Source: an uncultured Gammaproteobacteria bacterium (GTDB lineage Bacteria > Pseudomonadota > Gammaproteobacteria > Ga0077536). From it: a stretch of DNA of 64,000 nucleotides. The notes beneath the pieces were generated by a model that searched no databases, had not been told where the DNA came from, and saw only the letters and a list, made by a program, of their open reading frames with translations. The DNA is taken from contig CAXBJY010000005.1 in the NCBI GenBank assembly GCA_963976285.1, forward strand, positions 3,164 through 67,163. Direction: 5' to 3'. The translations under genes and the position numbers were made by a program. Below are positions 2,136 through 36,008 of the stretch, piece by piece; position 1 is the first letter of the stretch, and each line of letters opens with the position of its first letter.

Positions 2136-2240
2136 TGTTCCTTCATGCTGCATTTTGGTTGTCCCGATGAGTAAATTGAATCAGCGTTTGTTCTTGCTAT
2201 GTTGTTATTTGGCCACGCCCGAAAGCGTTCGCGGGGCTCG

Positions 2241-2849: not shown

Positions 2850-2944
2850 ATCAGATCATTCCTGTGTCGTCCGTGTGTCTTGGATCGAGCCCACGGGCGG
2901 AGTTTAGTTCATGGCATTTTTGCGCCGTGTGTCCCGTCAGCCGC

Positions 2945-4057
2945 TCATGCGGTTCCGTAGGAGCGGTTTTTCCACCGCGAGCGTTCGCCTCGCGTGTAGC
3001 GCACGGCCGAGGTCCAGGTCATCGCGAGAAACAGCGTTGCCGCCAGTGGCAACGTCGCGATCCAACCGGGGCCGAGCCCGTAGTACCGAATTGTCGGCGC
3101 GTACGAGGCGAACATTGTCGCCAGCGCAATCACGGCGAGCACAACGGCGGCGGGTACGCCGCTGAACAACGCCACGATCGGCACGATGTAGCCGAGCACG
3201 AGCAGCACGGTGCACACGGCAAGCCAGATCGGCGAGTAATGCAATTGGGTGTATGCGGTGCGCGCGACCATGTTCCAGATATTGGTCAGCGTGCCGTACG
3301 GGCGCAAGGCGCGCGCGTCGTTCGACAGACCGATCCAGATCCGACCGGGCCGCTGCTTGATCTTTTTCGCCAGCGTGCAGTCGTCGATGATCGCTTCGCG
3401 CAGGCTGTCGAAACCGCCGATTTCGGCGAGCGCCGTTCGGCGCAGGAGTACGCACCCGCCGGCCCCGGCGGCGACGAACGAACGCTCGCTGTTCGCCAGT
3501 GCAAACGGGTAGATCAGCTTGAAGAAATACACGAACGGTGGCAGCAGCAGGCGCTCCCAGAAATTACGCATGTGCAGGTTCGCCATGATGGAAATCATGT
3601 CGAGTTGTTCGAGTTCGAGGCGCTTGAGCATACTCGCCACGACCCCGGGTTCGAGGCCGATGTCCGCGTCGAGCAGCAGCACGTAGGGCGACTCGCAATG
3701 CTGCAGCCCCTGGCGCAAGGCCCACAACTTGCCGCTCCATCCGGGTTCCGGGCCGCTGCCGGACAGTACCGTCAGATTGTCGAGGCCGGTACCGCGAGCA
3801 ATATCGCCGGTTCCGTCGCTGCTTTGATCGTCGATCACGACCACGCGTCTGAAGCGCCCCTGACGGGCGAGTCGGGCGAGCGTTTCGCCGATACAGGACG
3901 CTTCGTCGCGCGCGGGGATGAGTACGCTGATGCTGTCGAAATCCGATGCGGCGTCCGGATCGATGACAAGGCGCTCGCGCGTGCTCCAGGGGCGCCACGG
4001 CAACAGCAGCAAGCCTGCCCACATACACGCCGCGCCTGCAGCGAGCCATGTGATCAC
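2945..4057 (-). CDS. hpnI: GT2 glycosyltransferase with N- and C-terminal TM segments, hopanoid-associated (HpnI/HpnB-like)
   Basis: GT-A fold motifs (VLIPARDE, VVVIDDQSSDGT, LLLDAD) flanked by TM helices, resembling ceramide glucosyltransferase/HpnI architecture. Immediately downstream of hpnH. Confidence 0.6.
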   Translation of the reverse strand: MITWLAAGAACMWAGLLLLPWRPWSTRERLVIDPDAASDFDSISVLIPARDEASCIGETLARLARQGRFRRVVVIDDQSSDGTGDIARGTGLDNLTVLSGSGPEPGWSGKLWALRQGLQHCESPYVLLLDADIGLEPGVVASMLKRLELEQLDMISIMANLHMRNFWERLLLPPFVYFFKLIYPFALANSERSFVAAGAGGCVLLRRTALAEIGGFDSLREAIIDDCTLAKKIKQRPGRIWIGLSNDARALRPYGTLTNIWNMVARTAYTQLHYSPIWLAVCTVLLVLGYIVPIVALFSGVPAAVVLAVIALATMFASYAPTIRYYGLGPGWIATLPLAATLFLAMTWTSAVRYTRGERSRWKNRSYGTA

Positions 4058-4105
4058 ACCGGAACCGCCGTCAGTCGTGGCACGGTAAGACGTCGTGGGT
4101 AGCGG

Positions 4106-5236
4106 TCAGGCGACCTGTTTTTCGTTCGTGGATTTTTCGACGTCGGTACTCGCCACGAGCAGCGGTTTCGCCGGCACCGCTTCGTCGTCGTAGTGGAACG
4201 GCACTTCCGGTGCCATCTCGCCATCCGTGCGCGGGCCGCGCAGGAACACCGACAGCGCTTTCCACGGCCGCGCCACGGTATCGTTTACCGCCGTCGCCTC
4301 GTAGCCGCTGTGTACCATGCAATCGGCACACTTCGGGTTGACGCCGGTACCGTACTTGTCCCATTCCGTCGCTTCGAGCAATTCGCTGAACGTCTTCGCA
4401 TAACCTTCGCCAACGAGCAGATAGCACGGTTTTTGCCACCCGAAGACATTGCGCGTCGGGTTGCCCCACGGCGTGCAGTGGTAGGTCTGGTTACCGGCGA
4501 GGAAATCGAGGTACAGCGACGACTGGTTGAAGCGCCATTTGCGGCCGCGGCCAAGCTTGAAGATATCGCGGAACAACTGGCGGCTGCCCTTGCGTTTGAG
4601 AAAAACATCCTGCCGCGGTGCGCGTTCGTAGTTGTAGCCGGGAGAAATCGTTACGCCCTCGACACCGAGCGCCATCATCGTGTCCATGAATTCCGCGACT
4701 TCTTCCGGCGATTCCCCCTGGAACAGGGTGCAATTGACGGTGACCCGGAATCCCCGCGCGAGCGCCTTTTTGATCACGGCGGTGCATTTCTCGTACACGC
4801 CCGTCCGGCACACCGAGGCGTCGTGACGATCCCGGTTACCGTCGAGGTGAATCGAGAACGTGAGGTACGGGGACGGGCTGTAGTCGTCCATGCGGCGGTC
4901 GAGCAGCAGCGCATTCGTGCACAGGTAGACGAATTTCTTGCGCGCGATGTAGCCCTCGACTATCTGAGGCATCTCTTTGTGGATCAGCGGCTCACCGCCG
5001 GCAATCGACACGATCGGGGCGCCGCATTCATCCACCGCGCCAAGCGCGTCTTCGACGCTGAGGCGTTTGTCGAGGATATTTTCGGGATAGTCGATCTTGC
5101 CACAGCCCGAGCAGGCGAGATTGCAGCGGAACAGCGGCTCGAGCATGAGCACAAGCGGGTAGCGTTTTACACCTTTGAGCTTCTGACTGAGTATGTAACG
5201 ACCTACGCGGTATTGCTGAATCAGCGGTACGCCCAT
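4106..5236 (-). CDS. hpnH: hopanoid biosynthesis radical SAM protein (adenosylhopane synthase)
   Basis: CNLACSGC radical-SAM CxxxCxxC motif about 40 aa from the N-terminus. The conserved HpnH N-terminus (QQYRVGRYILSQKLKG..RYPLVLMLEPLFRCNLAC) and the length of about 376 aa also match. Confidence 0.85.
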   Translation of the reverse strand: MGVPLIQQYRVGRYILSQKLKGVKRYPLVLMLEPLFRCNLACSGCGKIDYPENILDKRLSVEDALGAVDECGAPIVSIAGGEPLIHKEMPQIVEGYIARKKFVYLCTNALLLDRRMDDYSPSPYLTFSIHLDGNRDRHDASVCRTGVYEKCTAVIKKALARGFRVTVNCTLFQGESPEEVAEFMDTMMALGVEGVTISPGYNYERAPRQDVFLKRKGSRQLFRDIFKLGRGRKWRFNQSSLYLDFLAGNQTYHCTPWGNPTRNVFGWQKPCYLLVGEGYAKTFSELLEATEWDKYGTGVNPKCADCMVHSGYEATAVNDTVARPWKALSVFLRGPRTDGEMAPEVPFHYDDEAVPAKPLLVASTDVEKSTNEKQVA

Positions 5237-5574
5237 GATGTGCCTCTGGAAGATGTTGGTTTAGCGACTGATTGTGCCGGTTTGATCGTCTTGCGACTGC
5301 CAGCCGAATGGGGCGCTAAGATACTGTAATGATTCTGTAAAGTACAGGCTTTGCGCTGCACCATCCGGGATTCCCCGGTGATTCGCGCTAAGGAATTTCG
5401 CCGTCGTGCACGCTAAAACGATAGCGCCATTTTCGGCGTGTAACCCGGGGCCGGGGTGCTCGCGTCGCTTGCCCGGATCGCTGACGGGCCGTTTGCTAGC
5501 GGTTGCTGCGCGAATCAAGGATAATGCCGCCGCTCGGTGCTTCCCCCTTTTGATGCCTTTATATTTGCGCGACC

Positions 5575-7476
5575 ATGACCCGTAAAACGAATTATCCATT
5601 GCTTGATAACCTGAACTCGCCGGAAGATTTGCGGCAACTGCCGGAATCGTCACTGGAGCAGGTCGCGCGTGAATTGCGTCAATTCCTGCTCGCTTCGGTC
5701 AGTCAAAGCGGTGGCCACTTCGCTGCCGGGCTCGGCACCGTCGAACTGACCGTCGCGCTGCATTACCTCTACAACACGCCCGAGGATCGGATCGTTTGGG
5801 ACGTAGGCCACCAGGCCTACCCGCACAAGATCCTGACGGGGCGCCGGGACCGGATCCACACGGTACGCCAGAAAGGCGGTGTGGCACCGTTTCCGAAGCG
5901 CGACGAGAGCGCATACGACACGTTCGGGGTCGGCCATTCGAGTACATCGATAAGCGCCGCGCTCGGTATGGCACTCGCGGCGAAGACCACGGGTACGGGG
6001 CGCCGCGCGGTCGCCGTGATCGGCGATGGCGGGCTGACCGCCGGGATGGCATTCGAGGCACTGAACCATGCCGGTGACTGCGGCGTCGACATGCTCGTCA
6101 TCCTGAACGACAACAACATGTCGATTTCACCGAATGTCGGCGCGTTGTCGAACCGGTTCGCGCAATTGCTGTCCGGCAAGATTTACAAGACCGTGCGCGA
6201 AGGCAGCAAGAAAGTGCTGTCGCAGGTGCCGAACGCGTGGGAACTCGCGCGTCGCGCGGAAGAGCACGTCAAGGGACTCATCGTCCCCGGCACCCTGTTC
6301 GAAGAGTTCGGGTTCAACTACATCGGACCGATCGACGGGCACGATTTGCCAACCGTCCTGGCGACCTTGCGCAACATCCAGGAACTCGACGGACCTCAGT
6401 TCCTGCATATCATCACGAAAAAAGGCAAAGGTTACGCCCCGGCAGAAGAAGACCCGGTGAAATATCACGGCGTGACGCCGTTCGATCCGAACGTGGGCAT
6501 TGTGTCGAGCCCGTCGGCGGCGCCGTCGAAGCCGAGTTACAGCAAAATTTTCGGCGACTGGCTGTGCGATATGGCCGCGCTCGACAAACGCCTTGTCGCG
6601 ATCACACCGGCGATGCGCGAAGGGTCCGGACTCGTGCGTTTCGAGGAGGAATTCCCCGATCGCTACTACGATGTTGCCATTGCCGAGCAACACGCCGTGA
6701 CGGTTGCCGCCGGCATGGCATGTGACGGGCTGAAGCCCGTGGTTGCGATCTACTCGACGTTCCTGCAGCGTGGCTATGATCAACTCGTGCATGACGTCGC
6801 GCTGCAAAACCTGCCCGTCCTGTTTGCGCTCGACCGGGCCGGGGTTGTCGGCGCGGACGGACCGACGCACAACGGTAGCTACGACAACAGCTTTCTGCGT
6901 TGTCTGCCGAACATCGTACTGATGGCGCCGGCCGACGAGAACGAGTGCCGGCAGATGCTCTATACCGGCTTCATGCACGACGGCCCGGCCGCGGTGCGCT
7001 ACCCGCGCGGCGGCGGACCCGGTGTGGAACTCGAAGCGAAAATGACGGCGCTGCCGCTCGGCAAGGCCGAAGTACGACGCCGCGGCCGCGGCATCGCGAT
7101 ACTCGCGTTCGGCACGATGGTCGCGCCCGCCACGGCCGTCGCCGAGAAACTCGATGCAAGCGTCGTGAACATGCGCTTCGTCAAACCGCTCGATGAGGAC
7201 ATCATCGTCGAGATGGCGCACGCGCACGACGTCATCGTGACTATCGATGAGAACGTCACCGCGGGCGGTGCCGGCAGTGCGGTCAACGAGGTCCTGGCCG
7301 CGCACGGAATTACGCAGCTCACATTGAACCTGGGCCTGCCCGATCGTTTACTGCAGCACGGATCGCGTGACGATATGCTGGCCGAAGGCGGGCTCGATAT
7401 TGCGCACATCGAAGCATCGATCGCGGCGTTTCTCGACAAGGTACACGGCGCGCACAGCACCGCTCAAAGCGCCTAG
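5575..7476 (+). CDS. dxs: 1-deoxy-D-xylulose-5-phosphate synthase
   Basis: 633 aa. TPP-binding GDG..N motif ([19 protein letters not shown]) and the typical Dxs N-terminus ([16 protein letters not shown]). Confidence 0.9.
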
Positions 7477-7498
7477 CGCGCGGCCGCCTCGCGGCCTG

Positions 7499-8575
7499 TC
7501 AGCCAGCGAGCGCGGCCGTGAGCGCCTGCCGCAGGCGGCCGATGTCGGCGCTGCTGATCTCGCCCATCATCGAAATCCTGAAAATCGACTGCGCGTAGCT
7601 GCCCTGGCCCGCGTAGATGATGAACCCGGCCGCCTTCAGCGCATCGTGCAGCGTCGTATAGTCCGTGCCTTGCGGTAACTTGTAGGCGTGCAGCACGCAT
7701 GAACACTCGGCGGCATCGAGCAGCGGTTCGATGCCGAGCACTACGAGGGTCTCGCGGACCGTCGCCATGCGTGATTCGTAAAGTGCCCGTCGCGCCGCGA
7801 CCCCGCCGGATTCCTCGAGCTCATCGAGCGCTTCGTCGAGCGCATAGAACGTCTGTATCGACTGCGTGAATGGGGTGCCGGCACTGTCCTGGGCGCTGAC
7901 ATAGGCGCCGAGGTCGAGGTACAGATTGCGCGGGTGTGCCGCGGCGAGCGCATCGCGCGACGTGATGACGAAGCACGTTCCCGGGACCCCGTGCAGGCAT
8001 TTGTTCGCGGTGGCCGCGCAAGCCGCGATCGGCACGCTCGTAAACGGGATCGCTTCGGCCGCGAAACTGCTGACCGCGTCGAGCAGCACCGCGACGTCGT
8101 GTTGCCGGCAGATTTCCCCCAGCGGCCCGAGATCGTTCAGGCGGCCGGTGGTCGTTTCGTGGTGGACCACGGCAATATGCGAGATGTCGCCATCGGCGGC
8201 GAGGGCGGCGGCCACGGCCGCGTAATCGATCGGCGCCTGCCACGCCTGCGTCACGCTCGTCGCCGGGATCGCATAGCGCTCCGCGATGCGGCGCATTCTT
8301 TCGCCGTAAACACCGTTCTCGACGATCAACAGCTTGCCATCGCGCGGCACGAGGCTCGTGATCATGGATTCAACCGCGGCCGTACCCGAGCCCGTGATCA
8401 GCGCGCTGGCCCAGTCGGATGCCGGGAGGTCGTAGGTCGCGAGCAACTTCTCGCGAATGCCGCTTTGCAGGCTCGAGAATTCCGGTTCGCGATGACACAG
8501 GTCGTCGCGCAGCATCGCGTTGCGTACGCGCGCGCTAAGGGTGACCGGTCCGGGGTTGAGCAGGATCGTTTTCAT
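7499..8575 (-). CDS. phnW: 2-aminoethylphosphonate--pyruvate transaminase (class V aminotransferase)
   Basis: N-terminus LLNPGPVTLS and class-V PLP fold of about 358 aa. Overlaps ppd by 4 nt (ATGA). Confidence 0.75.
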   Translation of the reverse strand: MKTILLNPGPVTLSARVRNAMLRDDLCHREPEFSSLQSGIREKLLATYDLPASDWASALITGSGTAAVESMITSLVPRDGKLLIVENGVYGERMRRIAERYAIPATSVTQAWQAPIDYAAVAAALAADGDISHIAVVHHETTTGRLNDLGPLGEICRQHDVAVLLDAVSSFAAEAIPFTSVPIAACAATANKCLHGVPGTCFVITSRDALAAAHPRNLYLDLGAYVSAQDSAGTPFTQSIQTFYALDEALDELEESGGVAARRALYESRMATVRETLVVLGIEPLLDAAECSCVLHAYKLPQGTDYTTLHDALKAAGFIIYAGQGSYAQSIFRISMMGEISSADIGRLRQALTAALAG

Positions 8576-9726
8576 TGATGGATTTGCTCCTGCAGCCGCT
8601 CGAGTACCGCGGCCGGAGTGATTGCGGGACGTGGCAGATCATCGATCGTGCCGGTGGTGATTTTCATATGCACGAAACGCGGGCCGTTGCCGCGGGGTTG
8701 CGCGAGAAACGCGCTCAGGTCGTCAGGATGCGCGGCGCGCGCCGCCACCGCATAACCGCAAGCCCGGGCGATGTCGGCGAAATCGACCCCGGCCGAAACC
8801 GTCGCCTGCGCACCGGTTGAATCGTGCGCCTCGTTGTCGAGCAACACATGCGACAGGTTGCCGCCGGCGTAAGCGCCGACCGTCGCGAGGTTGCCCATGC
8901 GCATGAGGCCCGCGCCGTCGCCGTCGATGATGATCACATGCAAATCCGGACGTGCGAGCGCAAGCCCGAGCCCGAGGCTCGAGGCACAACCCATCGAACC
9001 GACCATGTACAGCTGGTTCGCGCGGTCAGCGGCCGCGTACAATTCGCGCCCGCTGAACCCGGTCGTCGCGATCACGACGGACCCGCGCCCGGGGCTCGCG
9101 TCGATGATCCGTGCAAGCGCCTGCGCGCGGGTCGGGCGCGTCGCCGCCGCGCATTGTTCGATCGACGGTCCCGTAACCTGGGTTGCGCGCACGCGTTCCG
9201 GTGGCGGGGGATTCGACAGGGGATGCGGTGACACCGTGCCTTTGCGCATGACCAGGGCATAGGGTCGCCGTTCGCGCGTGAGGTAGGCCTGCGCGCGTTC
9301 GAGCGCCGGTCCGATATCCGCGGTGTCAGCCGGAAAGTATTCCCACGGTATCTCCATCGTGTCGAACAGTTCACCGGTAATCCGGCCCATGAGTTCGTGC
9401 TGGGGTTCGTCCTTGAGCCCGGGTGCGCCACGATGCGTGCAGATCACGAGCAGCGGGATGCGGAAGACATATGCGAGCGAGGTCAACGGACTGACGGCGT
9501 TGCCGAGACCCGAGTTCTGCATCATCGCGACTCCCCCGCGGCCGCCGATCGCGGCGCCGCAGGCTGCCGCCACCGCATCACCTTCGTTCGCGGCGGAAAC
9601 GTAAGTCAGCGCGGGATCGCCGATCACGTAGTTGATGAACGGGGTCAGAAACGAACACGGCACCCCCGCGTACCAGTCGAAGCCGGCCGCGCAAGCGCGG
9701 TCGACGAAATCTCGTGCTTCGATCAT
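8572..9726 (-). CDS. ppd: phosphonopyruvate decarboxylase (TPP-dependent)
   Basis: About 384 aa with TPP-binding GDG-x25-N region (IIIDGDGAGLMRMGNLATVGAYAGGNLSHVLLDNEAH). Lies between PEP mutase and the AEP transaminase. Confidence 0.8.
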   Translation of the reverse strand: MIEARDFVDRACAAGFDWYAGVPCSFLTPFINYVIGDPALTYVSAANEGDAVAAACGAAIGGRGGVAMMQNSGLGNAVSPLTSLAYVFRIPLLVICTHRGAPGLKDEPQHELMGRITGELFDTMEIPWEYFPADTADIGPALERAQAYLTRERRPYALVMRKGTVSPHPLSNPPPPERVRATQVTGPSIEQCAAATRPTRAQALARIIDASPGRGSVVIATTGFSGRELYAAADRANQLYMVGSMGCASSLGLGLALARPDLHVIIIDGDGAGLMRMGNLATVGAYAGGNLSHVLLDNEAHDSTGAQATVSAGVDFADIARACGYAVAARAAHPDDLSAFLAQPRGNGPRFVHMKITTGTIDDLPRPAITPAAVLERLQEQIHQ

Positions 9727-9742
9727 CGTGCTGTAAACCTGC

Positions 9743-11398
9743 TCAGGAATCCTGCTCCGCCGCGAAATCCCCGGCGCGCTCGAGATCGGTCAGTGAATTC
9801 ACATCGAGCCAGTGTCCGTGGATATACCACACGCGCACATCGCGGCCGGCGTCGACCATGGCGTTGATCAGCTCGGGCAGGCCGAGCTGAGCGAAATCGT
9901 CGCGTTCGGACAGTCGGTTTATCGCGTCCTCGAGCCACGTGCGTCCTTCGCCGGTCGCGCGGATCATGCCGATCCAGCGACCGCTGGGTTCGCCGTCCGC
10001 CCCGGGGTCGCGGCCTTCGACGATGCGCTTCAGACTCACGGCCTGGCCCCACATCGAGCGGTCGTCCGGTTCGCTGCAGTAGGCAAAATCCTGGGTGCCG
10101 TTGTGCACGAGTTCATCCGTCGCGGAATCGACAACGACGCTGAGGTCTGCGTCGCTCTCCATCAAATCGCGCAGGATGTAGCTGCGGAACAACAGATCAC
10201 CGTACATGATGACCATGTCGTCGCTGAACCGATCCATTGCGCAGCGCAGGGAGCTGAGTTCACCGGTGTTTGCAAACGCCTCGTTTACGAGCAGGTTGAT
10301 ACCCTGGACGTCGATACTTTCCGCCTTGTAACCCGCAACGACCGTAATGTCGTCGATGCCGCGCTTTTTACATTTATCGACGAGACGGCGGAGCAGGGGA
10401 ATGCCGGCGACCGGAATCATCGCTTTTGGCCGTTCGGCCGTGAGGCCTTCAAGGTCGCCGCCGCTCCCGCTGCCCGCGGCAAGGATGATCGCCTTCGTTT
10501 CGGCCTGGTAACTCGAGAAATAACGATCTTCGGCCGCCGCGAGTTCGTCCGCACCCTGCAGGCGAAACAGTTCGTCGACGCTTGCAATGCGGTCTTCGAT
10601 TTCCGTCAGTGACTCCGTTTCGTAGATCACGGCCGCGGTTTTCTGCATTGCCTGAACGGCGCTGCGGATCAGGTGGTTCGCCCAGATCACGAGGCTGATC
10701 TCCGCCTTGCGGAACACTTCGACGGGGGTACTGTAATACTTCGTCGGCACGATGACGACGGGCGCGCGGTTCGCCCATTCCGCGGCAAATTCGACGATCT
10801 GATCGGGGCGCGAGAGTTTGCTGTGGATCAGAATCGCATCGGCGCCGGCCTGCCGGTACGCTTCGGCGCGACGCAGCGCCTCGCCAATATCCCAGCCCGC
10901 GATCAACGCCTCGACGCGCGCCACGATACAGAAATCGTCGTCGGACTGACTGTCCTTGCCGGCAGCTATTTTGCCGCAGAACTCGTCGGCGTCCGCGAGC
11001 GGCTGGCGTTCACCGCCGATGAAGCTGTTCGTTTTCGGAAAGACCTTGTCTTCGATACACACGCCGCCGATATTGCGCTGCTCGAGTTTGCGCACGAGCC
11101 GGCGCATGTTATTGAAATTACCGTAACCCGTATCGCCATCGAGCAGGATCGGGATCGTCGTGGCATCGGACATGAACTCGAGCATATCGACGACCTGCGT
11201 CCAGCTCGCCTCGTTGTTGTCGCGGACGCCAAACTGCGCGGACAGGGCGAGTCCGCTGGCCCAGATCCCCCTGAAACCGGCTTCCTCCGCGATGCGCGCG
11301 CTGATGCCGTTGTGTGCCTCGAGGATGAATTCGAGCTGGTTCGAGCTAATCAGCGAACGCAGTGCGCGTGCTTTAGTCGGGGCGGTGGTATTCGTCAT
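9743..11398 (-). CDS. pepM: phosphoenolpyruvate phosphomutase fused to a C-terminal nucleotidyltransferase domain
   Basis: N-terminal 290 aa is an ICL/PEPM-family TIM barrel with PEP mutase-like motifs ([30 protein letters not shown]). The C-terminal domain has the glycine-rich NTP-transferase signature [23 protein letters not shown]. Confidence 0.8.
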
Positions 11399-12129
11399 TG
11401 AATTCTCGGCAGGATCTGTTGGTTCGCGCGGGTTATATCTTCAGGAAAATCGATTTCGACCCAGGGGCGGCCCGTGACGTCGACGACGTCGAACGTCGCG
11501 CCCTGCACCAGTACGAGATCGCGAATGGCCTCTTCATACGGCTCGTTACGTCGTTGCGCACCGACAAACGCGTCGGCAATGTCTGCCAGCGCCGTCGCGG
11601 TCGCGGCCGTCAGCGAGAAAAACCCGACGGATTCACCGGCATCGTCATAACTGAGATCCGGCGCGAGTTGTTTGCGAAATTCGACCACGCGACCGCGCTC
11701 GAGGCAGATTTTCACGGGTTCGTCGCCCGGTTCGAAATCGCGGTCGCACAGAAAGCGGTTATGCACCGGGACGTGGGCGAGCAAGCGCAGGAGTTCGGGG
11801 TCGTAGAGGACGTCGGCATCCATCAACAGGATATCTTCGCCGGCCCGCAAAGCGTCGCGCATCGTCCACAGGCTGACGACGCTGCCTTCGCGGAAGGCGG
11901 GGTTCATGACGGTCGTGACCCGTGCCTGCGTATGACCCGTCACCGCTTGCTCGAGCAGTTCGTGGCGATAACCGGTGCACAGCGCCACGTCTTCGATCCC
12001 GGCGGCGACGAGATTTCGCAGGTGACGTTCGAGCAACGTGATGCCGCCGAACTCGAGCAGGCATTTCGGCCGGTCGCCGTGGGCGCCGAGGCGTGCGCCA
12101 ACGCCGGCGGCGAGAATTATCGCGCGCAT
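11395..12129 (-). CDS. nucleotidyltransferase (LicC/cytidylyltransferase-like)
   Basis: [21 protein letters not shown] signature. Stop overlaps the pepM start (ATGA). A longer ORF extends to 12204, but the start is chosen at the ATG that puts the G-rich loop at the N-terminus. Confidence 0.65.
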
Positions 12130-12154
12130 GGGCGCGGCCCGCGGCGTGGTTCGT

Positions 12155-12895
12155 TCATGGTCCGGGGTTGCGGCGGTCGCGGCTGAACACCTGCCTGAAA
12201 CCAAAATAGGCGATCGCGTCCTTCATATTCGAGACGAAACGCAATACCGGGTTCATGTGGGTGCTCGTCAGGTACTCGAGCGTCAGCGCGACCCGGCGCT
12301 CGTCGGCGGCGAGCGGCGTGATCCGGTGATACAGCTTGTCGCCGTTGAACATGACGAACATGCCGGGTTCGAGATTGACGCTCAGCGCCGAGGTCGCGAC
12401 GGCGGGATTCTTCGTGTGTAACTGGCATTCGAGGCGGCAACTCGGCGCGGCGACGAGGCCGAGCAGGATCGTGTAGCGCGCGCCGTCGTAATACGAGGTG
12501 TCGTAGTGATAGCCGATGTGGTCGCCGGGTTCGGTGTAGTAGTACAGGGCATAGGTGTGCGGATCGCCCGGCGGGCAATAGTTCAGTTCGCGCCCGCACA
12601 GTGCGCTCATGAACGCCATCAGGGCTTCGGCCTGATACAGCTCGCCGTAGCGCGGCGCGGTGCGATCGAGGTCGAAACGGCTGACGCTGCCGCCTTTCTT
12701 GTGCTTCGGGATGAAGTTTCGATGCACGACGGGCTCGAGCGCGGGCAGGTCGCCGAGCAGGGCCTCGAGGGTTGCCGGCGGCAGGAAATCCGGCACCAGC
12801 ACAAATTCGTCCTGGGCCACGAAATCGCGCTTTAACTGCTCGATATCGAGTGTCTTCAGGTGCTCTGCGAGCGCAGTGTTGAGGTCGGATTGCAT
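12155..12895 (-). CDS. PhyH-like Fe(II)/2-oxoglutarate dioxygenase
   Basis: HYD (His-x-Asp) motif in GDHIGYHYDTSYYDG and a distal His in KLYHRITP. First gene of the phosphonate operon. Start uncertain: ATG at 12895, or upstream TTG at 12958. Confidence 0.45.
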   Translation of the reverse strand: MQSDLNTALAEHLKTLDIEQLKRDFVAQDEFVLVPDFLPPATLEALLGDLPALEPVVHRNFIPKHKKGGSVSRFDLDRTAPRYGELYQAEALMAFMSALCGRELNYCPPGDPHTYALYYYTEPGDHIGYHYDTSYYDGARYTILLGLVAAPSCRLECQLHTKNPAVATSALSVNLEPGMFVMFNGDKLYHRITPLAADERRVALTLEYLTSTHMNPVLRFVSNMKDAIAYFGFRQVFSRDRRNPGP

Positions 12896-13043
12896 CGGAA
12901 CTGGATCGTCGGGGTCGAACGGCGGTTGCAGGGTACAGCGAGAGCCACGCGCAATCAATTACAAGGTGGAGGCGCCGATAAAGCTGTGAGAACATGCGCG
13001 GATCGATCCCGCCCCGAATGCACAGGAATTCACTACCCGAGTA

Positions 13044-14054
13044 ATGCGCTACGCCAAACTCCTCTTTCTCGTTATCGGCGTCGCGTTGCTCGTGTGGGTC
13101 GTCAAGCAGGCGAATATCGGTGAAATCTGGCGCCAGGTGCAGGCCATCAGCGTTGCGCAGATCGCCGGTGTGTTCGTGATCTACGCGTTGTATTTCGGCG
13201 CCGACGCGATCAGTTGGCAGGTTACGCTGGATTCCGTCGCGATGAACCTGCGCTGGGCGGGGCGTCTGTTCATCGTGCGTATGATCGGCGAGGCCTACAA
13301 CAACATCACACCGATGGCGTCGCTCGGCGGCGAACCAATCAAGGCCTGGTTTCTGAAAACGAACTACAACGTGCCCTTGAGCGACTCCGGCGCATCGCTG
13401 GTGCTGGCGAAAACCGCGAGCATGTTCTCGCTCGTCGTATTCGTCGGGATCGCACTCGTGCTAATCCTCGGGCACGACGATTTGTCCGCGAGTGACAAGA
13501 CGATGGCGAGTGTCGGACTTGCCTGGCTTGTGTTCAACGTGATCGTGTTCTTCCTGATGCAGCATCTGAAATTATCTACGTTCACCGCGACCCGCCTCGG
13601 ACGCACGCGGCTCGGAGAGCGGATGACGCATTTTATCGCGGGGCTGCAGAGCGTCGATGAGCAATTCGCGCGTTTCTACAAGCACCACCGCGGTCGCCTC
13701 GTGCTGTCGATGGCCTATGCGATGGCGAACTGGCTGCTCGGGGTGGTCGAGCTGTATTACATCCTCGGGCTGATCGGACATCCGGTCGGCTGGTGGGACG
13801 CCTGGATCATCGAAGCGATGGTGCAGATGATCCGCACGGCGGCATTTTTCATCCCGGCCGGGATCGGGGCGCAGGAAGGAGCGCTGATGATCGCGTGCAA
13901 TGCGCTGGCCGGTTCGCCGAATATCGGCATTGCCGCCGCGCTCGTGCGCCGCTTCAGGGAACTCGTGTGGATCGGAGTCAGCCTCGCGATTGCGGCGGCA
14001 ATGCACGTGAGTCCGAAAGTCGCGCGCGAGCCGGTCGCGACGCAGGATGCCTGA
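13044..14054 (+). CDS. hpnL: UPF0104 / MprF-flippase-like polytopic membrane protein (HpnL-like)
   Basis: 336 aa with about 8 predicted TM helices. Divergent from the phosphonate operon and adjacent to hpnA. Confidence 0.5.
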   Translation: MRYAKLLFLVIGVALLVWVVKQANIGEIWRQVQAISVAQIAGVFVIYALYFGADAISWQVTLDSVAMNLRWAGRLFIVRMIGEAYNNITPMASLGGEPIKAWFLKTNYNVPLSDSGASLVLAKTASMFSLVVFVGIALVLILGHDDLSASDKTMASVGLAWLVFNVIVFFLMQHLKLSTFTATRLGRTRLGERMTHFIAGLQSVDEQFARFYKHHRGRLVLSMAYAMANWLLGVVELYYILGLIGHPVGWWDAWIIEAMVQMIRTAAFFIPAGIGAQEGALMIACNALAGSPNIGIAAALVRRFRELVWIGVSLAIAAAMHVSPKVAREPVATQDA

Positions 14055-14069
14055 GTACGGCCGCGGCGC

Positions 14070-15053
14070 TTACGGGTGCGCGCGAAACCACGCGATCGCA
14101 TCTTCGAGCGCCTCGCGTGCGGGACGCGCCGTGTAGCCGAGTTCGGCGATCGCACGCGAGGAATCAAAATACATCTTCTTCTTCGCCATGCGTAATCCGT
14201 CGACCGTCGCCTGTGGCTCGGGGCCGTGGGTCAGCCACGCCCAGGCCTCGCTGGCATAGGCGACGGGATAGATCAGCGGGCGCGGCAGGCGGACACGGGG
14301 CGGCGGTCGGCCGCAGATCGCGGCGATCATCGTCAGAATTTCGCGCAGGCTCAGGTCCTCTCCGCCGAGGATATAGCGGCGACCAATCTCGCCGCGGTCG
14401 AGGGCCAGCAGGTGACCCGCGGCGACGTCATCGACATGCACGATGTTCAGCCCGGTATCGACGTACGCCGGCAGGCGGCCGGCCTGCGCGTCGCGCACGA
14501 CGCGACCGGTTGGGGTTGGCTTGATGTCGCGGGGACCGATCGGGGTCGACGGATTGACGATTACCGCCGGCAGATCGTGCGTTGTCACGAGTTCGTCGAC
14601 GGCGCGTTCGGCGAGGTATTTCGAACGCTTGTAGTGCCCAATCATATCGGCGAGTGTCACCGGCGTCGTTTCACTCCCGCGTGTTCCGTCACCCGGATTG
14701 CCGAGCGTCGCGACGCTGCTCGTATAGACAACCCGGCTAATGTTCGCGTCGAGCGCGGCGTGCATGAGCGCGCGCGTGCCATCGACGTTCGTGCGGTACA
14801 ACTCACGCGGATCGCGGGTCCATAAGCGGTAGTCAGCGGCGACGTGAAACAGCGTGTCACATCCGACGAGTGCCCGAGCGAGCGAGTCCGCGTCGTTCAG
14901 ATCCCCCTCGCGAACGTCGGCGTCGAGTCCGGCGAGGTTGCGTCGATCGGCTCCGGGTCGCACGAGTACGGCGAGTTCGGTTCCGCGCGCGCCAAGCAGT
15001 CTCGCGACCGCACTGCCGACAAATCCGGTCGCGCCGGTGACGAGCGTCTTCAC
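14070..15053 (-). CDS. hpnA: NAD-dependent epimerase/dehydratase, hopanoid-associated sugar epimerase (HpnA-like)
   Basis: VTGATGFVGSAV Rossmann motif and YxxxK (HYKRSK). Probable GTG start at 15053; the ORF extends to 15137. Confidence 0.7.
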   Translation of the reverse strand: MKTLVTGATGFVGSAVARLLGARGTELAVLVRPGADRRNLAGLDADVREGDLNDADSLARALVGCDTLFHVAADYRLWTRDPRELYRTNVDGTRALMHAALDANISRVVYTSSVATLGNPGDGTRGSETTPVTLADMIGHYKRSKYLAERAVDELVTTHDLPAVIVNPSTPIGPRDIKPTPTGRVVRDAQAGRLPAYVDTGLNIVHVDDVAAGHLLALDRGEIGRRYILGGEDLSLREILTMIAAICGRPPPRVRLPRPLIYPVAYASEAWAWLTHGPEPQATVDGLRMAKKKMYFDSSRAIAELGYTARPAREALEDAIAWFRAHP

Positions 15054-15054
15054 G

Positions 15055-15651
15055 TCAGCGAGCGCCGTCGGTGCCGGTGCGAATGAACTGCAAGGCAACG
15101 ACAAGCAGGGCGATCGGCGCGCCGATCGCGGCGGCATATAAAAAACCGACTTCCTGATTGCTCAGCGTGACGAGCGGAATCAGGTACAGCACGTCTTCGG
15201 TTTCAAAGCCCGCGAAACTCGCCTGCCGGACCGCGGCTTTGCCATGGCGCGACTCGATCATGTGACGCAGTTGAAAAATACCGGCGACCGCGATGCCTGC
15301 GACAAGACCGTAAACCGCCGCGGCGTCGCCGATCGTCGCCGTCAATCCGAATCCGAGGCCCGTGAACAGGCCGACGGTCACGAGCGCGTCGCTGAACAGG
15401 TCGTAGCGATGGCCAAACACGCTCATTTTGCCGCTCATGCGCGCGAGTTCGCCGTCGGTGTGGTCGAGGAAGTTTGACAGCACGATGCACAGCGCGGCGA
15501 GGTTGAACTGCGAACCGGTCGCAAACAGCCACGCGCCCGCGAGACCGACGAGCAAACGCAGCGTCGTCAGCGCGTTCGGATGCAGACGTGTATCGACGAA
15601 TGGCCGCACGAGCAGTGCCGCCGCGCGGGCATCCCAGGGTTTTGCGCTCAT
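15055..15651 (-). CDS. CDP-alcohol phosphatidyltransferase family protein
   Basis: Signature D-x2-DG-x2-AR-x8-G-x3-D-x3-D (DHTDGELARMSGKMSVFGHRYDLFSD) with multiple TM helices. ATG overlaps the hpnN stop (ATGA). Confidence 0.75.
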   Translation of the reverse strand: MSAKPWDARAAALLVRPFVDTRLHPNALTTLRLLVGLAGAWLFATGSQFNLAALCIVLSNFLDHTDGELARMSGKMSVFGHRYDLFSDALVTVGLFTGLGFGLTATIGDAAAVYGLVAGIAVAGIFQLRHMIESRHGKAAVRQASFAGFETEDVLYLIPLVTLSNQEVGFLYAAAIGAPIALLVVALQFIRTGTDGAR

Positions 15652-18260
15652 GCTGTTCGTACTGGTGAGAACTGCTTCAACAACGCGGGCAATACTAGCA
15701 AGGTGCACACGAGCGTCGCCACGATGCCGATCGTGAGCATGACGCCCATGCTCGCGGTGCCGGCATGGGACGATGTTGCGAGGTTGCCGAAACTGACCGT
15801 GGTGGTCAGGGCGCTGAACAGTACGGCACGGGCCGTACTCGTTTGCAGCAGATTACCGTTGTCCGGCAGCGCGGTCCGGTAGCGGTGGAGCATGTGCAAG
15901 GCACTGTCGACGCCGATCCCGAGCAGCAACGGGAGCGCGATGATGTTCGCGAAATTGAACGGCAGCGAGAACACGACGGACGCTGCAGTCGTGAGCAGGC
16001 CGGCGAGGATCAGCGGGCTCAGCACGATGGCGACGTCCTTGAACGAACGCAGGATCAGCCACAACAAGCCCGTGATCACGACGAACGCGCAGGAGAACGC
16101 CTGGATAAACGCGAGCACGACGGCGTCACTCGCGCCGAGGTTGATGACCGGCGCACCCGTGATTCGATCGCCGAGCACCTCGCGCACGGATTCGACGAAT
16201 CGTTTCATCGCGCGCGGATCATCCACCGGTTCGGCCGGGAAGATTTCGAGGCGGCGCGTGCCGGATTCCGTCACCCAGCGTTCGCGCAGCTCCGGCGGCA
16301 GGTCGGTGACGTCGAACGGCTCGGGTGCGAGGCTGTCGTTGAGTAGCGCGAGTCGGCCGTCGAAACTCATGAGCAGTTTTGCCTCGAGCGCCGCGAGCGC
16401 GACGGCCTGGGCGTCCGGACCCAGCGTCGCAAACCTGTCGCGCCACGCGATGAGCGCGGAGCGCAGGGCGGCAGCGGCGTCCATCGCGGCCTCGTCGTCG
16501 AGCGCGGCGAGCAGTTCGTCTATCGCCGTCAGGGTGGCGGCGGGGTCCGCGGCGGGTGTTGGCTGTGGCGACAGATCGGCGCCGAGGATGAGGGCGAGAT
16601 CGTCGACGATGGCGAGCTTTTCGTCCTGCCGCGCGGGCACGAGGTCATCGAGACTGCGCACGGATTGCACGGTGTCGAGCGAACTCAGCGTGACGCTCGC
16701 GTCGGCGACTTCGGCGGCGGAATCGAACAGCGCGGATATCGACATCGGCGATTGCTGATCATCGGCGATCAGATCGCGATACGTCGTGACGGACTGCGCA
16801 GCCGGGTTGTTCAGGTTCACCGGGTCCGTGTCGAATTTCGCGCCCGGGATTGCCAGCGCGGTGAGTATCCACGTAACGGTCGCCACGCCCAGTACGGCGC
16901 GCGCGTGACGGCGCGGAAATGACGCGACTCGATCGGGCAGCGTAAACGTGCGTGTCGCGGGGCCGGGCTGCGGCATCACATGCAGCAGCGCGGGCAGCAG
17001 CGTGATACTGACGAGCAGACTGATGAACATGCCAACCCCGGCAATGAGGCCGAGCTCCGCAACCCCGCGATACGCCGTTGGCAGGAACGCAAAGAATCCC
17101 GTTGCGGTTGTCAGCGCACACAGGATCAACGATACGCCCACATGGCGGCTCGTACGGTTGATGGCGAAATCGGCGTTGTTGTGCCGGAGCATTTCGCGGT
17201 AGCGCAGGCAGATATGAATCGCGAAATCGACGCCGAGACCCACGTACAGCACCGCGAACGCGATCGAAATCATGTTCAGGGTGCCGACGGCGGCGACCGC
17301 GAAGCCCGCGGTAAAGACGAGGCCCACGATCAGCGTTACGAGCGTCGCGACGACGAGTACGATCGAGCGCAGGCCGATCAGCAGGCACACCAGCACCATC
17401 ACGAGCGCGAGGGTACCCGCGTTCTGCGAACCGGTGATCACGCTGTCGAGTTCGTCGTAAGCGAGCGCCGCGGCGCCGGTCAGGCGGATGTTCACGCCGT
17501 GTTCGCGATCGAGCGCGAGCGCTGCGGCATGGGCTGCGACCGCCTTCATGGCCGGTTCCGCGGGCAGCAGGGCGGTGTAATCGAGGCGTGGTTGCAGCAC
17601 GACGAACTCGCGATGCACGGCGGTGTCTTCGGCATCGCCCGTGAGCAGGGCTTGCCACGACAGCGGTACGTTGTTGCCACGGTTCAGTTCGTCGATAGCG
17701 CTTGCGATCCGAGCCGTCGCCGGCACAATCGCCGCCGGTGTCGTCTCCGCCGTCATTGCGTCCCGGAGCAGCCCGAACAACACGGCGCTCGAGCGCTCGG
17801 CGCTGAGACGCGCAAGAAACGGTTGTGCTTCGCCGAGTTGATCGCTGAGCGCCTGAAGTTCGTTCGGTGCGAGATACAACAGCTGATTGCGCCGCAGAAA
17901 CGGATCATCACGCGGGTAGAACACCTCGCCGACGATATCGTCCGCCGCGCGCAGCCGCTGCGTCAGCGCACCGGCGGCGTCGCGTGCCACATCGGCGGTT
18001 GCGCCGTCGATGACGACGACGATCGTATCGGCGAAGAACGGGAAGTCCCGTTTATAGGCGGTGTACGTCGCCCGCCACGGCAGCTTCTCCGACAGCATCG
18101 CACCGGTGTCGGTATTGATCGCAATATGGCTGATGGCATACCCGGCGACGAGCGCCGCGCCGACAAGGTAAGCGACAATAACCGGCCATGCCCGCCGCTG
18201 GGCGGTATCGACGAGACGGCCGATCACGTTCTCGGCCAGCGGGTACAGGGTGGCGAGCAT
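15648..18260 (-). CDS. hpnN: MMPL/RND-superfamily hopanoid transporter
   Basis: 870 aa with two large periplasmic loops and 12 TM helices in an RND/MMPL arrangement, inside the hopanoid operon. Confidence 0.8.
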   Translation of the reverse strand: MLATLYPLAENVIGRLVDTAQRRAWPVIVAYLVGAALVAGYAISHIAINTDTGAMLSEKLPWRATYTAYKRDFPFFADTIVVVIDGATADVARDAAGALTQRLRAADDIVGEVFYPRDDPFLRRNQLLYLAPNELQALSDQLGEAQPFLARLSAERSSAVLFGLLRDAMTAETTPAAIVPATARIASAIDELNRGNNVPLSWQALLTGDAEDTAVHREFVVLQPRLDYTALLPAEPAMKAVAAHAAALALDREHGVNIRLTGAAALAYDELDSVITGSQNAGTLALVMVLVCLLIGLRSIVLVVATLVTLIVGLVFTAGFAVAAVGTLNMISIAFAVLYVGLGVDFAIHICLRYREMLRHNNADFAINRTSRHVGVSLILCALTTATGFFAFLPTAYRGVAELGLIAGVGMFISLLVSITLLPALLHVMPQPGPATRTFTLPDRVASFPRRHARAVLGVATVTWILTALAIPGAKFDTDPVNLNNPAAQSVTTYRDLIADDQQSPMSISALFDSAAEVADASVTLSSLDTVQSVRSLDDLVPARQDEKLAIVDDLALILGADLSPQPTPAADPAATLTAIDELLAALDDEAAMDAAAALRSALIAWRDRFATLGPDAQAVALAALEAKLLMSFDGRLALLNDSLAPEPFDVTDLPPELRERWVTESGTRRLEIFPAEPVDDPRAMKRFVESVREVLGDRITGAPVINLGASDAVVLAFIQAFSCAFVVITGLLWLILRSFKDVAIVLSPLILAGLLTTAASVVFSLPFNFANIIALPLLLGIGVDSALHMLHRYRTALPDNGNLLQTSTARAVLFSALTTTVSFGNLATSSHAGTASMGVMLTIGIVATLVCTLLVLPALLKQFSPVRTA

Positions 18261-18265
18261 TTGCT

Positions 18266-18988
18266 TCAGGCGATCTTGGCGCGTTCATTACGCGACCCCG
18301 TCGTGGCGAAAGCCGGGCGCAACAGCATGGCCGCCTGGTGCAGGGTCGCGAGCGCCGCGCGATGCCAGCGCGCGAGGCGCAGCAGCGCGGGCAAATCCCC
18401 GGGGCTGTGCGCGAGCGAGGTGACAACGGACCATGGTCGCGTCGTGCCGTTGCTGGCAACCGCATCAAGCGCTATTCGCGGGATCGCGAAACCGACCGGA
18501 TCGACGATTGCCCGCACGGCGACGAAGCGTACTCCGGCGGCGGCCGCCGCCGCGCCGATTGCCGCGGATTCCATGTCGACGGCGACACATCGGCTTGCGG
18601 TGTGGATCGCTGCTTTTTCCGTCGGGTCGGTAATTGCGTGATCACTCGTATAGCCGGATCCGGTGCGTACATCGGTCGTGCGCAACGCATGGATGATGTC
18701 GCGCTGCCAGGTCGGATCGCATTGGCGGTGTGTGCCGCTGGCATCCACCACGTCGGTGTACACGAGAAGTTTGCCGGGGGGCAGGTTCGCCACGAGCGCG
18801 CCGGCGGTTCCCCATGACACGAGCGCATCGACCCGACCGGCCAGCATGCGCTCGGCCCCGGCGGCCGCGTTCGCGGGACCAATCCCGGTAACAATAATCT
18901 GGTGGCCATACGGATTCCCGTCGCGCGAGACGGCGGCATTCAGCGTGCGCGCCTCGTCGGCCATGGCCGTGACAAAACCTAATCGCAA
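18266..18988 (-). CDS. hpnG: PNP/MTA-nucleosidase family hopanoid-associated phosphorylase
   Basis: N-terminal RLGFVTAMADEA beta-strand typical of MTAN/PNP. About 240 aa. Probable TTG start. Confidence 0.7.
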   Translation of the reverse strand: MRLGFVTAMADEARTLNAAVSRDGNPYGHQIIVTGIGPANAAAGAERMLAGRVDALVSWGTAGALVANLPPGKLLVYTDVVDASGTHRQCDPTWQRDIIHALRTTDVRTGSGYTSDHAITDPTEKAAIHTASRCVAVDMESAAIGAAAAAAGVRFVAVRAIVDPVGFAIPRIALDAVASNGTTRPWSVVTSLAHSPGDLPALLRLARWHRAALATLHQAAMLLRPAFATTGSRNERAKIA

Positions 18989-19010
18989 AATAGTGTTCCG
19001 GTTTGAATGT

Positions 19011-20099
19011 TCAGACGACGCGTGATTCAGCTTCGTCGATAACAGTGGGCGCGCTGGCCGTGATTTCCCGTTGCGGCAGACCGCTCGAGGCGAGCGCGAA
19101 CAGGGCCCACAAGCCGGCGTTCGATCGCACGAGCGCGTTCGTCGAAATCACCGTCGCCTTGACGCTGCGGCGTAAAATTTTTACTTCGCTGCCGTCGGCG
19201 TAATCGCGGTGACGATTGAGCTTGCGCAACGTGAGCACGGCCATACCAAGCGCCCACAAACAGAATTTACGCATGCCGGGTTGCTCGCGCGGCAGCATGC
19301 AGGTGTAACGCAAGGCATTGCGCAGGTGCCCGTGAGCAACACTGATCAATTCACCGAGTGCATCCTCGAACCCCGGGCCGCCGCGGCCGGGCGCGATGTC
19401 GGACAAGCGAACGCCACGGGCGGCAAACACGTCGGCCGGCAGCCAGCACGCGCCGCGGGCACGGTCGTCCCAGATGTCTTTCAGGATATTCGTCATTTGC
19501 AGGCCCTGGCCGAAAGAGACGGCGAGCCGCATCATCTCGGCACGCCGCGGTTGCAGTTCAGGACAGTGGTCGCAAAACAACGCGGTCAACATTTCGCCCA
19601 CGACGCCGGCGACATAGTAGCAGTAGCGGTCCATCGCTGCCTGGTCTGCGAGTCCGTCGAGCGTTTCCTGACCCTGGTAATAGACCATGCCGTCGGCCAT
19701 CGTGCGTACGCACGCTTCCATCGCCGCGCGCTGGTTCGCGTTGAGACTGTGCGTGATGCGGATCACGGCCGGCGTCTCGGCGACGAGCTCGCGCTCCGCC
19801 GCGAGGGTGTGCGAGGCGAGCCGCGGCGCGAGTTCGGCGGCAAATGCCGCGGCGTCGCCATCGCCGCGAACGATATCAATGAACGCCTGCGAGTAACGCA
19901 GTTTGTCGTCGAACGGCAGCCCGGCGTCGTCCTCGATGGTGTCGGCGATCCGGCACAGCAGGTACGCATTCGCGACCGCGTGATACAGCGCCGCGGGCAG
20001 CGTCGGAATCGTCAGCGCGAAGGTTCTGGACACGCCCTGCAGGATACGGTCCTGAAAAGCGGTGTCGCGCTCACTCGGTGGGTTACTCATGGGGGGCAT
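19011..20099 (-). CDS. sqs: squalene synthase (squalene/phytoene synthase family)
   Basis: Asp-rich motifs (RIADTIEDD, NILKDIWDD) and an isoprenoid-synthase fold. The roughly 360-aa length favours a single-enzyme Sqs type over HpnC/HpnD. The ORF extends upstream to 20474, but the conserved core starts near M126. Confidence 0.75.
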   Translation of the reverse strand: MPPMSNPPSERDTAFQDRILQGVSRTFALTIPTLPAALYHAVANAYLLCRIADTIEDDAGLPFDDKLRYSQAFIDIVRGDGDAAAFAAELAPRLASHTLAAERELVAETPAVIRITHSLNANQRAAMEACVRTMADGMVYYQGQETLDGLADQAAMDRYCYYVAGVVGEMLTALFCDHCPELQPRRAEMMRLAVSFGQGLQMTNILKDIWDDRARGACWLPADVFAARGVRLSDIAPGRGGPGFEDALGELISVAHGHLRNALRYTCMLPREQPGMRKFCLWALGMAVLTLRKLNRHRDYADGSEVKILRRSVKATVISTNALVRSNAGLWALFALASSGLPQREITASAPTVIDEAESRVV

Positions 20100-20223
20100 A
20101 GTGTATCCGTCTTGGGTCGTGCGGAGCCAGTCGCCGGCGGCAGCGGCGCGACCGCGGTCGCAGCGCGCGTTATGATCCGCGCCCAGACCATGACGCGGGG
20201 CGGTTCCCGGCGGGGGAACGGGG

Positions 20224-35847: not shown

Positions 35848-36008
35848 GCCGGCCCCGGCGGTTACGAACAAGCCGGGCATGCTACGCTCGGCAGAAGCAC
35901 CGTAAGGCATAAACGATCGTCGGCGCGGCCGTGCCATAACGCGGCTGTGCACCCGTGCCGCGAACGCGCGCACGTGCGACGACGACCACAAATCAGGGGA
36001 AGCGATCC

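Follow-up and report, generated by a model that had tools for sequence, protein, structure and literature searches.

With 318 of 882 ppm neighbourhoods, the 'Burkholderiales_CDP-OH' group is the most abundant family; it is the counterpart of the Group 1 phosphonolipids in Yu et al. 2013 (Li & Horsman 2022, PMC8942020). Its seven-gene core, described as holding "two PntCs, one fused to Ppm", consists of a phosphoenolpyruvate (PEP) mutase (Ppm) fused to a nucleotidyltransferase (NTase) domain, a phosphonopyruvate decarboxylase (Ppd), a 2-aminoethylphosphonate (AEP) aminotransferase (AEPT), a 2-oxoglutarate (2OG) oxygenase, a second NTase, a CDP-alcohol phosphotransferase and an LPG_synthase_TM protein, and its predicted product is a 1-hydroxy-AEP phosphonolipid (Li & Horsman 2022, PMC8942020). 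Approximately 33% of Ppm proteins are fused to PF12804, and in some clusters the fused NTase is accompanied by a second NTase one or two genes away; assays covered only the non-fused enzymes Ari1348 and Tde1415, each with a preference for AEP (Rice et al. 2019, PMC6697681). We analyzed a locus with both types of NTase in a stretch of 64,000 nucleotides (the window) from contig CAXBJY010000005.1 of an uncultured gammaproteobacterium. We consider it fairly probable that this locus belongs, as a typical member, to the Group 1 phosphonolipid cluster family, in which the stand-alone NTase would make the cytidine monophosphate (CMP) ester CMP-(hydroxy)AEP and the Ppm-fused domain would be a distinct paralogue.

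The two-NTase architecture is already published, and the locus is a further example of it from an uncharacterised gammaproteobacterium. The additions made here are modest and comprise the family-wide non-canonical P-loop of Ppm-fused PF12804 domains, the full loss of Arg from that loop in this lineage, and the coupling of the phosphotransferase gene to hpnN and hpnA. No other ppm neighbourhood is as abundant in sequenced bacteria as this cluster family, and Burkholderia pseudomallei is among its carriers. Beyond three genome-mining papers, the literature searched held no biochemistry of either the fused domain or a hopanoid acceptor.

Sequence features of the two nucleotidyltransferases

All genes of interest lie on the minus strand, and the window has a high GC content of 60-66%. 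In order of transcription, they encode the 2OG/Fe(II) oxygenase, the stand-alone NTase, the Ppm-NTase fusion, Ppd and AEPT. A preliminary description of this DNA had reported two LicC-like NTP-transferase domains in one operon, one of them fused to the C-terminus of Ppm, and both open reading frames (ORFs) are present with the peptide strings that it quoted. The ATGA overlap between the stop and start codons of the stand-alone and fusion genes was read directly from the sequence at 11395-11398, as described, and the adjacent dioxygenase is real, with a HalD-like PF23169 match and an HxD...H triad (Table 1). The stand-alone gene had been said to follow the fusion; by direction of transcription it precedes it, and it starts 25 nt from the end of the oxygenase gene.

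The stand-alone NTase had Tde-PntC (6pd1) as its best match in the PDB, over the full length of the protein (E 3.4e-11 with the single sequence and 5e-20 with the family profile). The next relatives of the stand-alone family in the structural database were LicC and the inositol-phosphate cytidylyltransferases. The P-loop, G9-V-G-A-R13-x7-P21-K22, fits the PntC signature GXG(T/S)RX4-8PK except for Ala in place of T/S. Other key residues are D104-A-D106, K153, G165-E166, Y198-E199 and W223-x-E225-I-D227, and the GDE and GE-VG motifs of Tde-PntC are matched as well. Residues R13, K22, D106, K153 and E199 correspond to R15, K25, D106, K153 and E196 of Tde-PntC, respectively, and D104 replaces E104, a conservative Glu-to-Asp change also seen in LicC (D105). 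R13, K22, D104, D106, K153, E166 and E199 were invariant both in 15 and in 52 members of the stand-alone family. When both NTase families were aligned with Tde-PntC by MAFFT, the Y195-E196 region came out misplaced in the stand-alone family, and HMMER pairwise and profile alignments were used instead. For the stand-alone enzyme, the ratio of nonsynonymous to synonymous substitution rates (dN/dS) was 0.099 in comparison with L001, an 86% identical relative from an independent 5.8-Mb assembly. Since the stand-alone NTase is the closest relative of the assayed Tde-PntC and keeps the catalytic and amine-binding residues, it is the best-supported candidate for the main CMP-(hydroxy)AEP-forming step and would represent PntC proper.

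The Ppm domain of the fusion protein scored 390.5 bits against TIGR02320 (cutoff 319.55) over aa 13-284 and contains the Ppm-specific EDKxxxxxNS motif. PF12804 (NTP_transf_3) was matched at aa 303-423 with 51.8 bits, compared with 59.2 bits for the stand-alone enzyme (gathering score 27). The AlphaFold2 model of the fused domain had a predicted local distance difference test (pLDDT) score of 92.2 and a predicted template-modelling (pTM) score of 0.90. In a Foldseek comparison with the PDB the best match of this model was 6pd2, PntC (E 2.3e-17, TMq 0.79), and 1jyk, LicC, was also recovered; TM-scores to PntC and LicC were 0.76-0.79. The fused domain is accordingly modelled as a complete PntC/LicC-type fold. 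At the sequence level its best match was LicC (E 4.5e-12 with the single sequence and 1.4e-18 with the profile). The two NTase domains of the locus share 33% identity over the N-terminal 120 aa, with nothing detectable beyond, and are distant, anciently diverged paralogues.

The main departure of the fused domain from the described enzymes is in the P-loop. In alignments to four structures (of LicC, ST0452 and Tde-PntC), D315 aligns with R15 of Tde-PntC, and the PK lysine, K325, is kept. The fused family profile aligns without gaps and has a variable residue ('e') opposite the canonical Arg, and none of 71 neighbouring fusions has Arg in this column. A displaced loop, AA[S/T/A/N]RGxxL, was found in 71 of 73 neighbouring fusions, the exceptions being L001 and L026. 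Across 74 representatives at 50% identity with a readable loop, the displaced position is occupied by R in 51, Q in 11 and K in 5. The loop in the window, AAGSGSGG, has two extra residues and lacks Arg at both the canonical and the displaced position, and the same is true of L001. We rejected a sequencing or assembly error as the source of the GSGSGG loop and regard the Arg-less loop as real, because L001 encodes the same peptide with synonymous DNA differences. A few other members of the fused family, namely L026 (a metagenome-assembled genome (MAG) of Gemmatimonadales), P0248, P0297, P0385, P0332 and P0361, have odd loops: TEG, GQGS, GASEG and GAATD (no basic residue), and GYDDR and GGDDR (Arg at the canonical position).

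Decay of the fused domain was also considered and was rejected on the basis of a dN/dS of 0.036 against L001, with the Ppm domain at 0.027. Such strong purifying selection clearly points to a domain that is functional in some sense. K325, D401 (the YGD Asp), the W-x-D motif, Y399, R405, R474 and W475 are invariant in the fused family, and Y399 occupies the position of E104 in Tde-PntC, where the alignment is solid. The equivalent of K153 was Gln in 56 of 71 members by a MAFFT alignment that is unreliable in the C-terminal half, and no position was assigned to E196. HMMER alignments of the fused domain cover only the N-terminal ~130 residues, and the C-terminal mapping (K153, E196, R474) rests on the uncertain MAFFT alignment. 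The full AEP cytidylyltransferase signature is thus carried by the free enzyme and not by the fused one, and the fused family lacks the canonical P-loop Arg yet is strongly conserved.

The preliminary description had named a lack of the catalytic Lys/Arg residues in the fused domain as evidence against its reading; one of the two has gone, as the canonical P-loop Arg is absent and the PK Lys is kept. Given the retained Lys and Asp and the alternative invariant arginines, we lean slightly toward a fused domain that still binds nucleotides and is catalytic, on another substrate or at another step, e.g., AEP versus 1-hydroxy-AEP. A non-catalytic or regulatory module attached to Ppm is a realistic possibility, if short of a probable one.

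Proposed pathway and alternative roles for the fused domain

Family assignments suggest the following pathway. The Ppm domain would convert PEP to phosphonopyruvate, Ppd would convert phosphonopyruvate to phosphonoacetaldehyde, and AEPT would form AEP from phosphonoacetaldehyde. The oxygenase would then 1-hydroxylate AEP, and an NTase would use cytidine triphosphate (CTP) to form the CMP-phosphonate. The CDP-alcohol phosphotransferase would move the phosphonyl head group onto a membrane lipid alcohol, and the flippase-like protein would handle the lipid product. The oxygenase translation contains H-Y-D ... H ... R motifs, i.e., a hydroxylase-type HxD triad, and the enzyme is a predicted AEP (or CMP-AEP) 1-hydroxylase. 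As this triad is intact, a halogenase role for the HalD-like protein was rejected. The CDP-alcohol phosphotransferase, in which the motif DxxDGxxARx8GxxxDxxxD was read complete in the translation, is the predicted user of the CMP-phosphonate.

Assignment of the locus to the Group 1 family, with the stand-alone NTase as the cytidylyltransferase, is supported by scores above curated cutoffs for Ppm, Ppd and AEPT and by Pfam matches for both NTases, the oxygenase, PF01066 and PF03706. Several considerations weigh against it. None of the enzymes of this cluster family has yet been assayed, nor has its phosphonolipid been isolated, not even for the clusters of Burkholderia (PMC8942020). A preference for AEP was also shown for the LicC-like Ari-PntC (PMC6697681), and therefore the LicC-like fused domain could equally be the AEP enzyme. 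R, Q or K can occupy the displaced position in the fused family, such that absence of the Arg may not abolish catalysis, and the mapping of its C-terminal residues (the K153 and E196 equivalents) is uncertain. Hydroxylation may come either before or after cytidylylation.

In the preliminary description the roles were reversed: the Ppm-fused domain would be the AEP cytidylyltransferase, channelling precursors to CMP-AEP, and the stand-alone enzyme might activate another head group such as 1-hydroxy-AEP. Different roles for the two NTases are plausible, as they are distant paralogues with different conserved pocket residues; as to which is the CMP-AEP enzyme and which the odd one, the evidence points the opposite way. 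Where Tde-PntC has the acidic amine-binding residue E104, the fused family has an invariant Tyr; the canonical P-loop Arg is missing from the neighbouring fusions and any loop Arg from this lineage; and the full-length relative of the assayed enzyme is the stand-alone family and not the fused one. The residue evidence favours the fused domain less than the stand-alone enzyme for this step, and we consider the reversed assignment unlikely. It is not without support, as the fused domain has the complete PntC/LicC fold with invariant PK Lys and metal-binding Asp, is under strong purifying selection, and is most similar in sequence to LicC, with the LicC-like Ari-PntC preferring AEP (PMC6697681). 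In addition, the stand-alone gene comes directly after the oxygenase gene, and the Glu-to-Asp change at Tde position 104 would enlarge the pocket slightly, which could make room for a hydroxylated substrate. For the free NTase, choline or ethanolamine had been suggested as well, and such a role is unsupported: no lic genes were seen within ~20 kb, and no lic-family gene (licA choline kinase, licB or licD) was found among all ORFs scanned between 1398 and 24200.

Family-wide loss of the canonical Arg would also be expected if the fused domain were catalytically inactive and served as a nucleotide- or CMP-phosphonate-binding regulatory or scaffolding module on Ppm, leaving all cytidylylation to the stand-alone enzyme. 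The corresponding Ala mutant of Tde-PntC, R15A, has <10% of its activity left (PMC6697681), the replacement position varies among R, Q, K and none across the 50%-identity representatives, and a competent stand-alone NTase is beside the fusion in 72 of 80 species (see below). A dN/dS of 0.036 is likewise as expected of a binding module. However, the invariant PK Lys, YGD Asp and W-x-D exceed the needs of a scaffold, Arg405 and Arg474 could replace the missing positive charge, and in many ppm clusters the nearest NTase, and possibly the only one, is a fused one (Rice et al. 2019, PMC6697681); we judge an inactive module to be rather unlikely. Far less probable still is cytidylylation of an early anionic intermediate (phosphonopyruvate or phosphonoacetaldehyde) by the fused domain, which would pull the unfavourable Ppm equilibrium forward and leave CMP-conjugates as the substrates of the later enzymes, a scheme known from the fosfomycin and FR-900098 pathways. 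Physical fusion to Ppm, replacement of the acidic amine-binding residues of Tde-PntC by Tyr and two family-invariant Arg (R405, R474), and the precedent of CMP-bound intermediates with Fom1 and FrbH (cited in PMC6697681) are consistent with such a step. It is inference only, though, and the R474 mapping is uncertain; Ppd and AEPT are ordinary members of equivalog families known for free substrates, and the stand-alone PntC would become redundant.

Conservation of the gene pair and its hopanoid setting

A search for homologues of the stand-alone NTase returned 7115 at E<1e-5. A profile scan limited to one genome per species gave 80 loci with such a homologue, and the window proteins were then run against these by tblastn. 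The 80 loci come from Burkholderia, Paraburkholderia, Pandoraea, Trinickia, Nostoc and other cyanobacteria, many Gammaproteobacteria MAGs and Steroidobacteraceae, and the best species-representative match to the window was only 63% identical. Pairing of the stand-alone NTase with the fusion is conserved and not due to chance, because 72 of the 80 species loci carry Ppm with the fused NT domain within 10 kb of the stand-alone NTase. The NTase was directly upstream of the fusion on the same strand in 54 of those 72, and the oxygenase adjoined the NTase in 52 of the 80. The complete seven-gene core was present in 22 of 48 species loci with full flanks, including those of Burkholderia, Pandoraea and Trinickia. 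The CDP-alcohol phosphotransferase is 50-71% identical in loci from Burkholderia, Nostoc and gammaproteobacteria, and the oxygenase orthologue in L001 is 246 aa long.

Two departures from the usual arrangement were observed. L083, L085, L086 (Paraburkholderia) and L076 have the stand-alone NTase, oxygenase, PF01066 and LPG_synthase_TM genes, with no Ppm within 10 kb; therefore, the tailoring half of the core occurs apart from the AEP-forming half in some genomes. In L004/L011 (contig_32698, a 737-kb MAG contig), each of Ppm, the NT domain and Ppd is broken into two ORFs, probably by long-read indel errors and not by gene fission.

In the window, all seven core genes lie between 7499 and 15651, with one deviation, the position of hpnA between the two lipid genes (Table 1). 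The LPG_synthase_TM gene is one of the two 'phospholipid' genes of the core and is divergently transcribed; its product scored 65 bits against TIGR00374 (cutoff 43) and 159 bits against the HpnL model TIGR03476, below the cutoff of 195.65. A scan of 7300-13200 for promoters and terminators found 1 promoter-like and 8 terminator-like sites compared with 1.4 and 4.5±2.2 expected, and was uninformative on operon structure.

Table 1. Features of the phosphonate locus and adjoining genes, with window coordinates
Feature	Coordinates	Strand	Match or basis
2OG/Fe(II) oxygenase, HalD/BesD-like, 246 aa from ATG	12155-12895	-	PF23169 HalD E 4.1e-9
Stand-alone PntC-type NTase, 244 aa from ATG	11395-12129	-	PF12804 E 7.1e-16
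Ppm-NTase fusion, 551 aa	9743-11398	-	TIGR02320 + PF12804
PEP mutase domain of fusion, aa 1-295	10514-11398	-	TIGR02320, PF13714 E 1.9e-58
C-terminal NTase domain of fusion, aa 296-551 + stop codon	9743-10513	-	PF12804 E 1.3e-13
P-loop of fused domain, I304-K325	10424-10489	-	Pairwise/profile alignments to LicC, ST0452, Tde-PntC
Phosphonopyruvate decarboxylase (Ppd)	8572-9726	-	TIGR03297 426.8 bits, cutoff 312.5
2-Aminoethylphosphonate aminotransferase (AEPT)	7499-8575	-	TIGR03301 379.9 bits, cutoff 360.8
LPG_synthase_TM / flippase-like (HpnL-like) membrane protein	13044-14054	+	PF03706 E 9.8e-37
CDP-alcohol phosphotransferase, 198 aa	15055-15651	-	PF01066 E 4.6e-14
hpnA, hopanoid-associated sugar epimerase	14070-15053	-	TIGR03466 491 bits, cutoff 367.65
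hpnN, hopanoid RND transporter	15648-18260	-	TIGR03480 931 bits, cutoff 751.85
hpnH, adenosyl-hopene transferase	4106-5236	-	TIGR03470 551.8 bits, cutoff 225
dxs	5575-7476	+	Between hpnH and phosphonate genes

In this lineage the AEP phosphonolipid core is embedded in a hopanoid operon. The locus spans 1398-20474, with mlaA-like, hpnM, hpnB, hpnH and dxs genes on one flank of the phosphonate genes and HpnL-like, hpnA, PF01066, hpnN, hpnG and squalene-synthase-like genes on the other. The CDP-alcohol phosphotransferase gene begins within the last 4 nt of hpnN and ends right at the start of hpnA. HpnB scored 380 bits (cutoff 379) and HpnM 206 bits (cutoff 160), and HpnG, with 174 bits, was just under its cutoff of 187. 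The scanned part of the window contained no squalene-hopene cyclase gene. The gene order of the window, hopanoid genes included, was kept in five metagenomic or genomic contexts in which NTase identity ranged from 86% down to 52%. At least two hopanoid genes were nearby in 21 of the 80 loci, across Gammaproteobacteria, some Nostocales and one alphaproteobacterial MAG.

This setting raises the idea of a phosphonate-headed hopanoid. CMP-(hydroxy)AEP from the stand-alone PntC would be esterified to bacteriohopanepolyol by the CDP-alcohol phosphotransferase of the hpn operon, and the Arg-less fused domain would be a CTP/CMP-phosphonate sensor on Ppm or an enzyme for another intermediate. We consider this proposal rather improbable; if true, the product would belong to a lipid class never described. 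The hopanoid-embedded version of the cluster is common to Nitrosococcus-type and many uncultured Gammaproteobacteria and to some Nostocales, and may be a pointer to an unknown phosphonate lipid.

Further genes were noted beyond the core. The squalene-synthase-like ORF (19011-20474) is 487 aa long from its first TTG, compared with 359-362 aa for its orthologues, and its true start is probably near 20099. It scored 109 bits against TIGR01559 (cutoff 287), and it may be either a squalene synthase or an HpnC/HpnD-like protein. Beside it are genes for a Y_phosphatase3 protein (20224-21234) and a small PEP-utilizers mobile domain protein (21281-22024), the latter followed by a 520-aa ORF without a Pfam match (22028-23590). 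All three genes are also present in L001, and only Y_phosphatase3 is kept in L002 and L003, with a sulfatase beyond. Farther along the window, 41701-58171 is a terpenoid/hydrocarbon-type catabolic region with two linalool dehydratase/isomerase (PF18566) homologues, at 43522-45102 (minus strand) and 56243-58171 (plus strand). Also noted with this region were a P450 (41701-43080), luciferase-like monooxygenases (35955-36995 and 46034-47131) and an AcrB-type pump (49627-52794).

Comparison with described systems

The locus has the same seven-gene core as the Burkholderiales_CDP-OH clusters. Identities to the Burkholderia, Pandoraea and Trinickia orthologues were 74-78% for Ppm, 48-56% for the fused NT domain, 52-54% for the stand-alone NTase, 50-55% for the oxygenase and 53-60% for the PF01066 protein. 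It differs from those clusters in its gammaproteobacterial host and in a core that is split by hpnA and flanked by hpnN, hpnG and squalene synthase genes on one side and dxs, hpnH, hpnB and hpnM on the other. The LPG_synthase_TM protein is only 26-29% identical to that of Burkholderia, and the fused loop reads GSGSGG here versus SRG.

Among characterized enzymes, comparison was made with the AEP-specific cytidylyltransferase Tde-PntC (Tde1415, PDB 6PD1/6PD2). The T. denticola cluster also holds a ppm-fused NTase besides PntC (PMC6697681). Tde-PntC is itself fused to an AEP transaminase, whereas the PntC-like enzyme of the window is free-standing; the fused domain has Asp315 at the position of R15, Tyr399 at that of E104 and probably Gln at that of K153. 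S. pneumoniae LicC, a CTP:phosphocholine cytidylyltransferase (PDB 1JYK/1JYL), shares the PF12804 fold and has the D-A-D motif in common with the stand-alone enzyme. Its canonical GLGTR loop is absent from the fused domain, and the genomic context here is a C-P bond pathway with no licA, licB or licD near. IPCT/DIPPS enzymes (PDB 4MND, 2XME, 4JD0) follow a parallel logic, with a PF12804-type cytidylyltransferase supplying a PF01066 transferase. The stand-alone NTase matched IPCTs at E ~1e-10 to 1e-11, and its top NCBIfam match was the IPCT/DIPPS model, at 74 bits versus a cutoff of 580. Unlike in IPCT/DIPPS, the NTase and transferase genes are separate, with 3 kb between them, and the context points to phosphonate and not inositol phosphate as substrate.

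Links between Ppm/AEP genes and squalene or hopanoid genes have been reported for Nitrosococcus gene cluster family (GCF) 731 (PMC8942020, PMC7285500) and for Roseomonas ppm-hopene cyclase hybrids (PMC8776678), and a 'phosphonate-terpene' product has been speculated. Those reports rest on antiSMASH or BiG-SCAPE output only, whereas in the window the linkage is seen at the level of individual genes, with the PF01066 gene translationally coupled to hpnN and hpnA.

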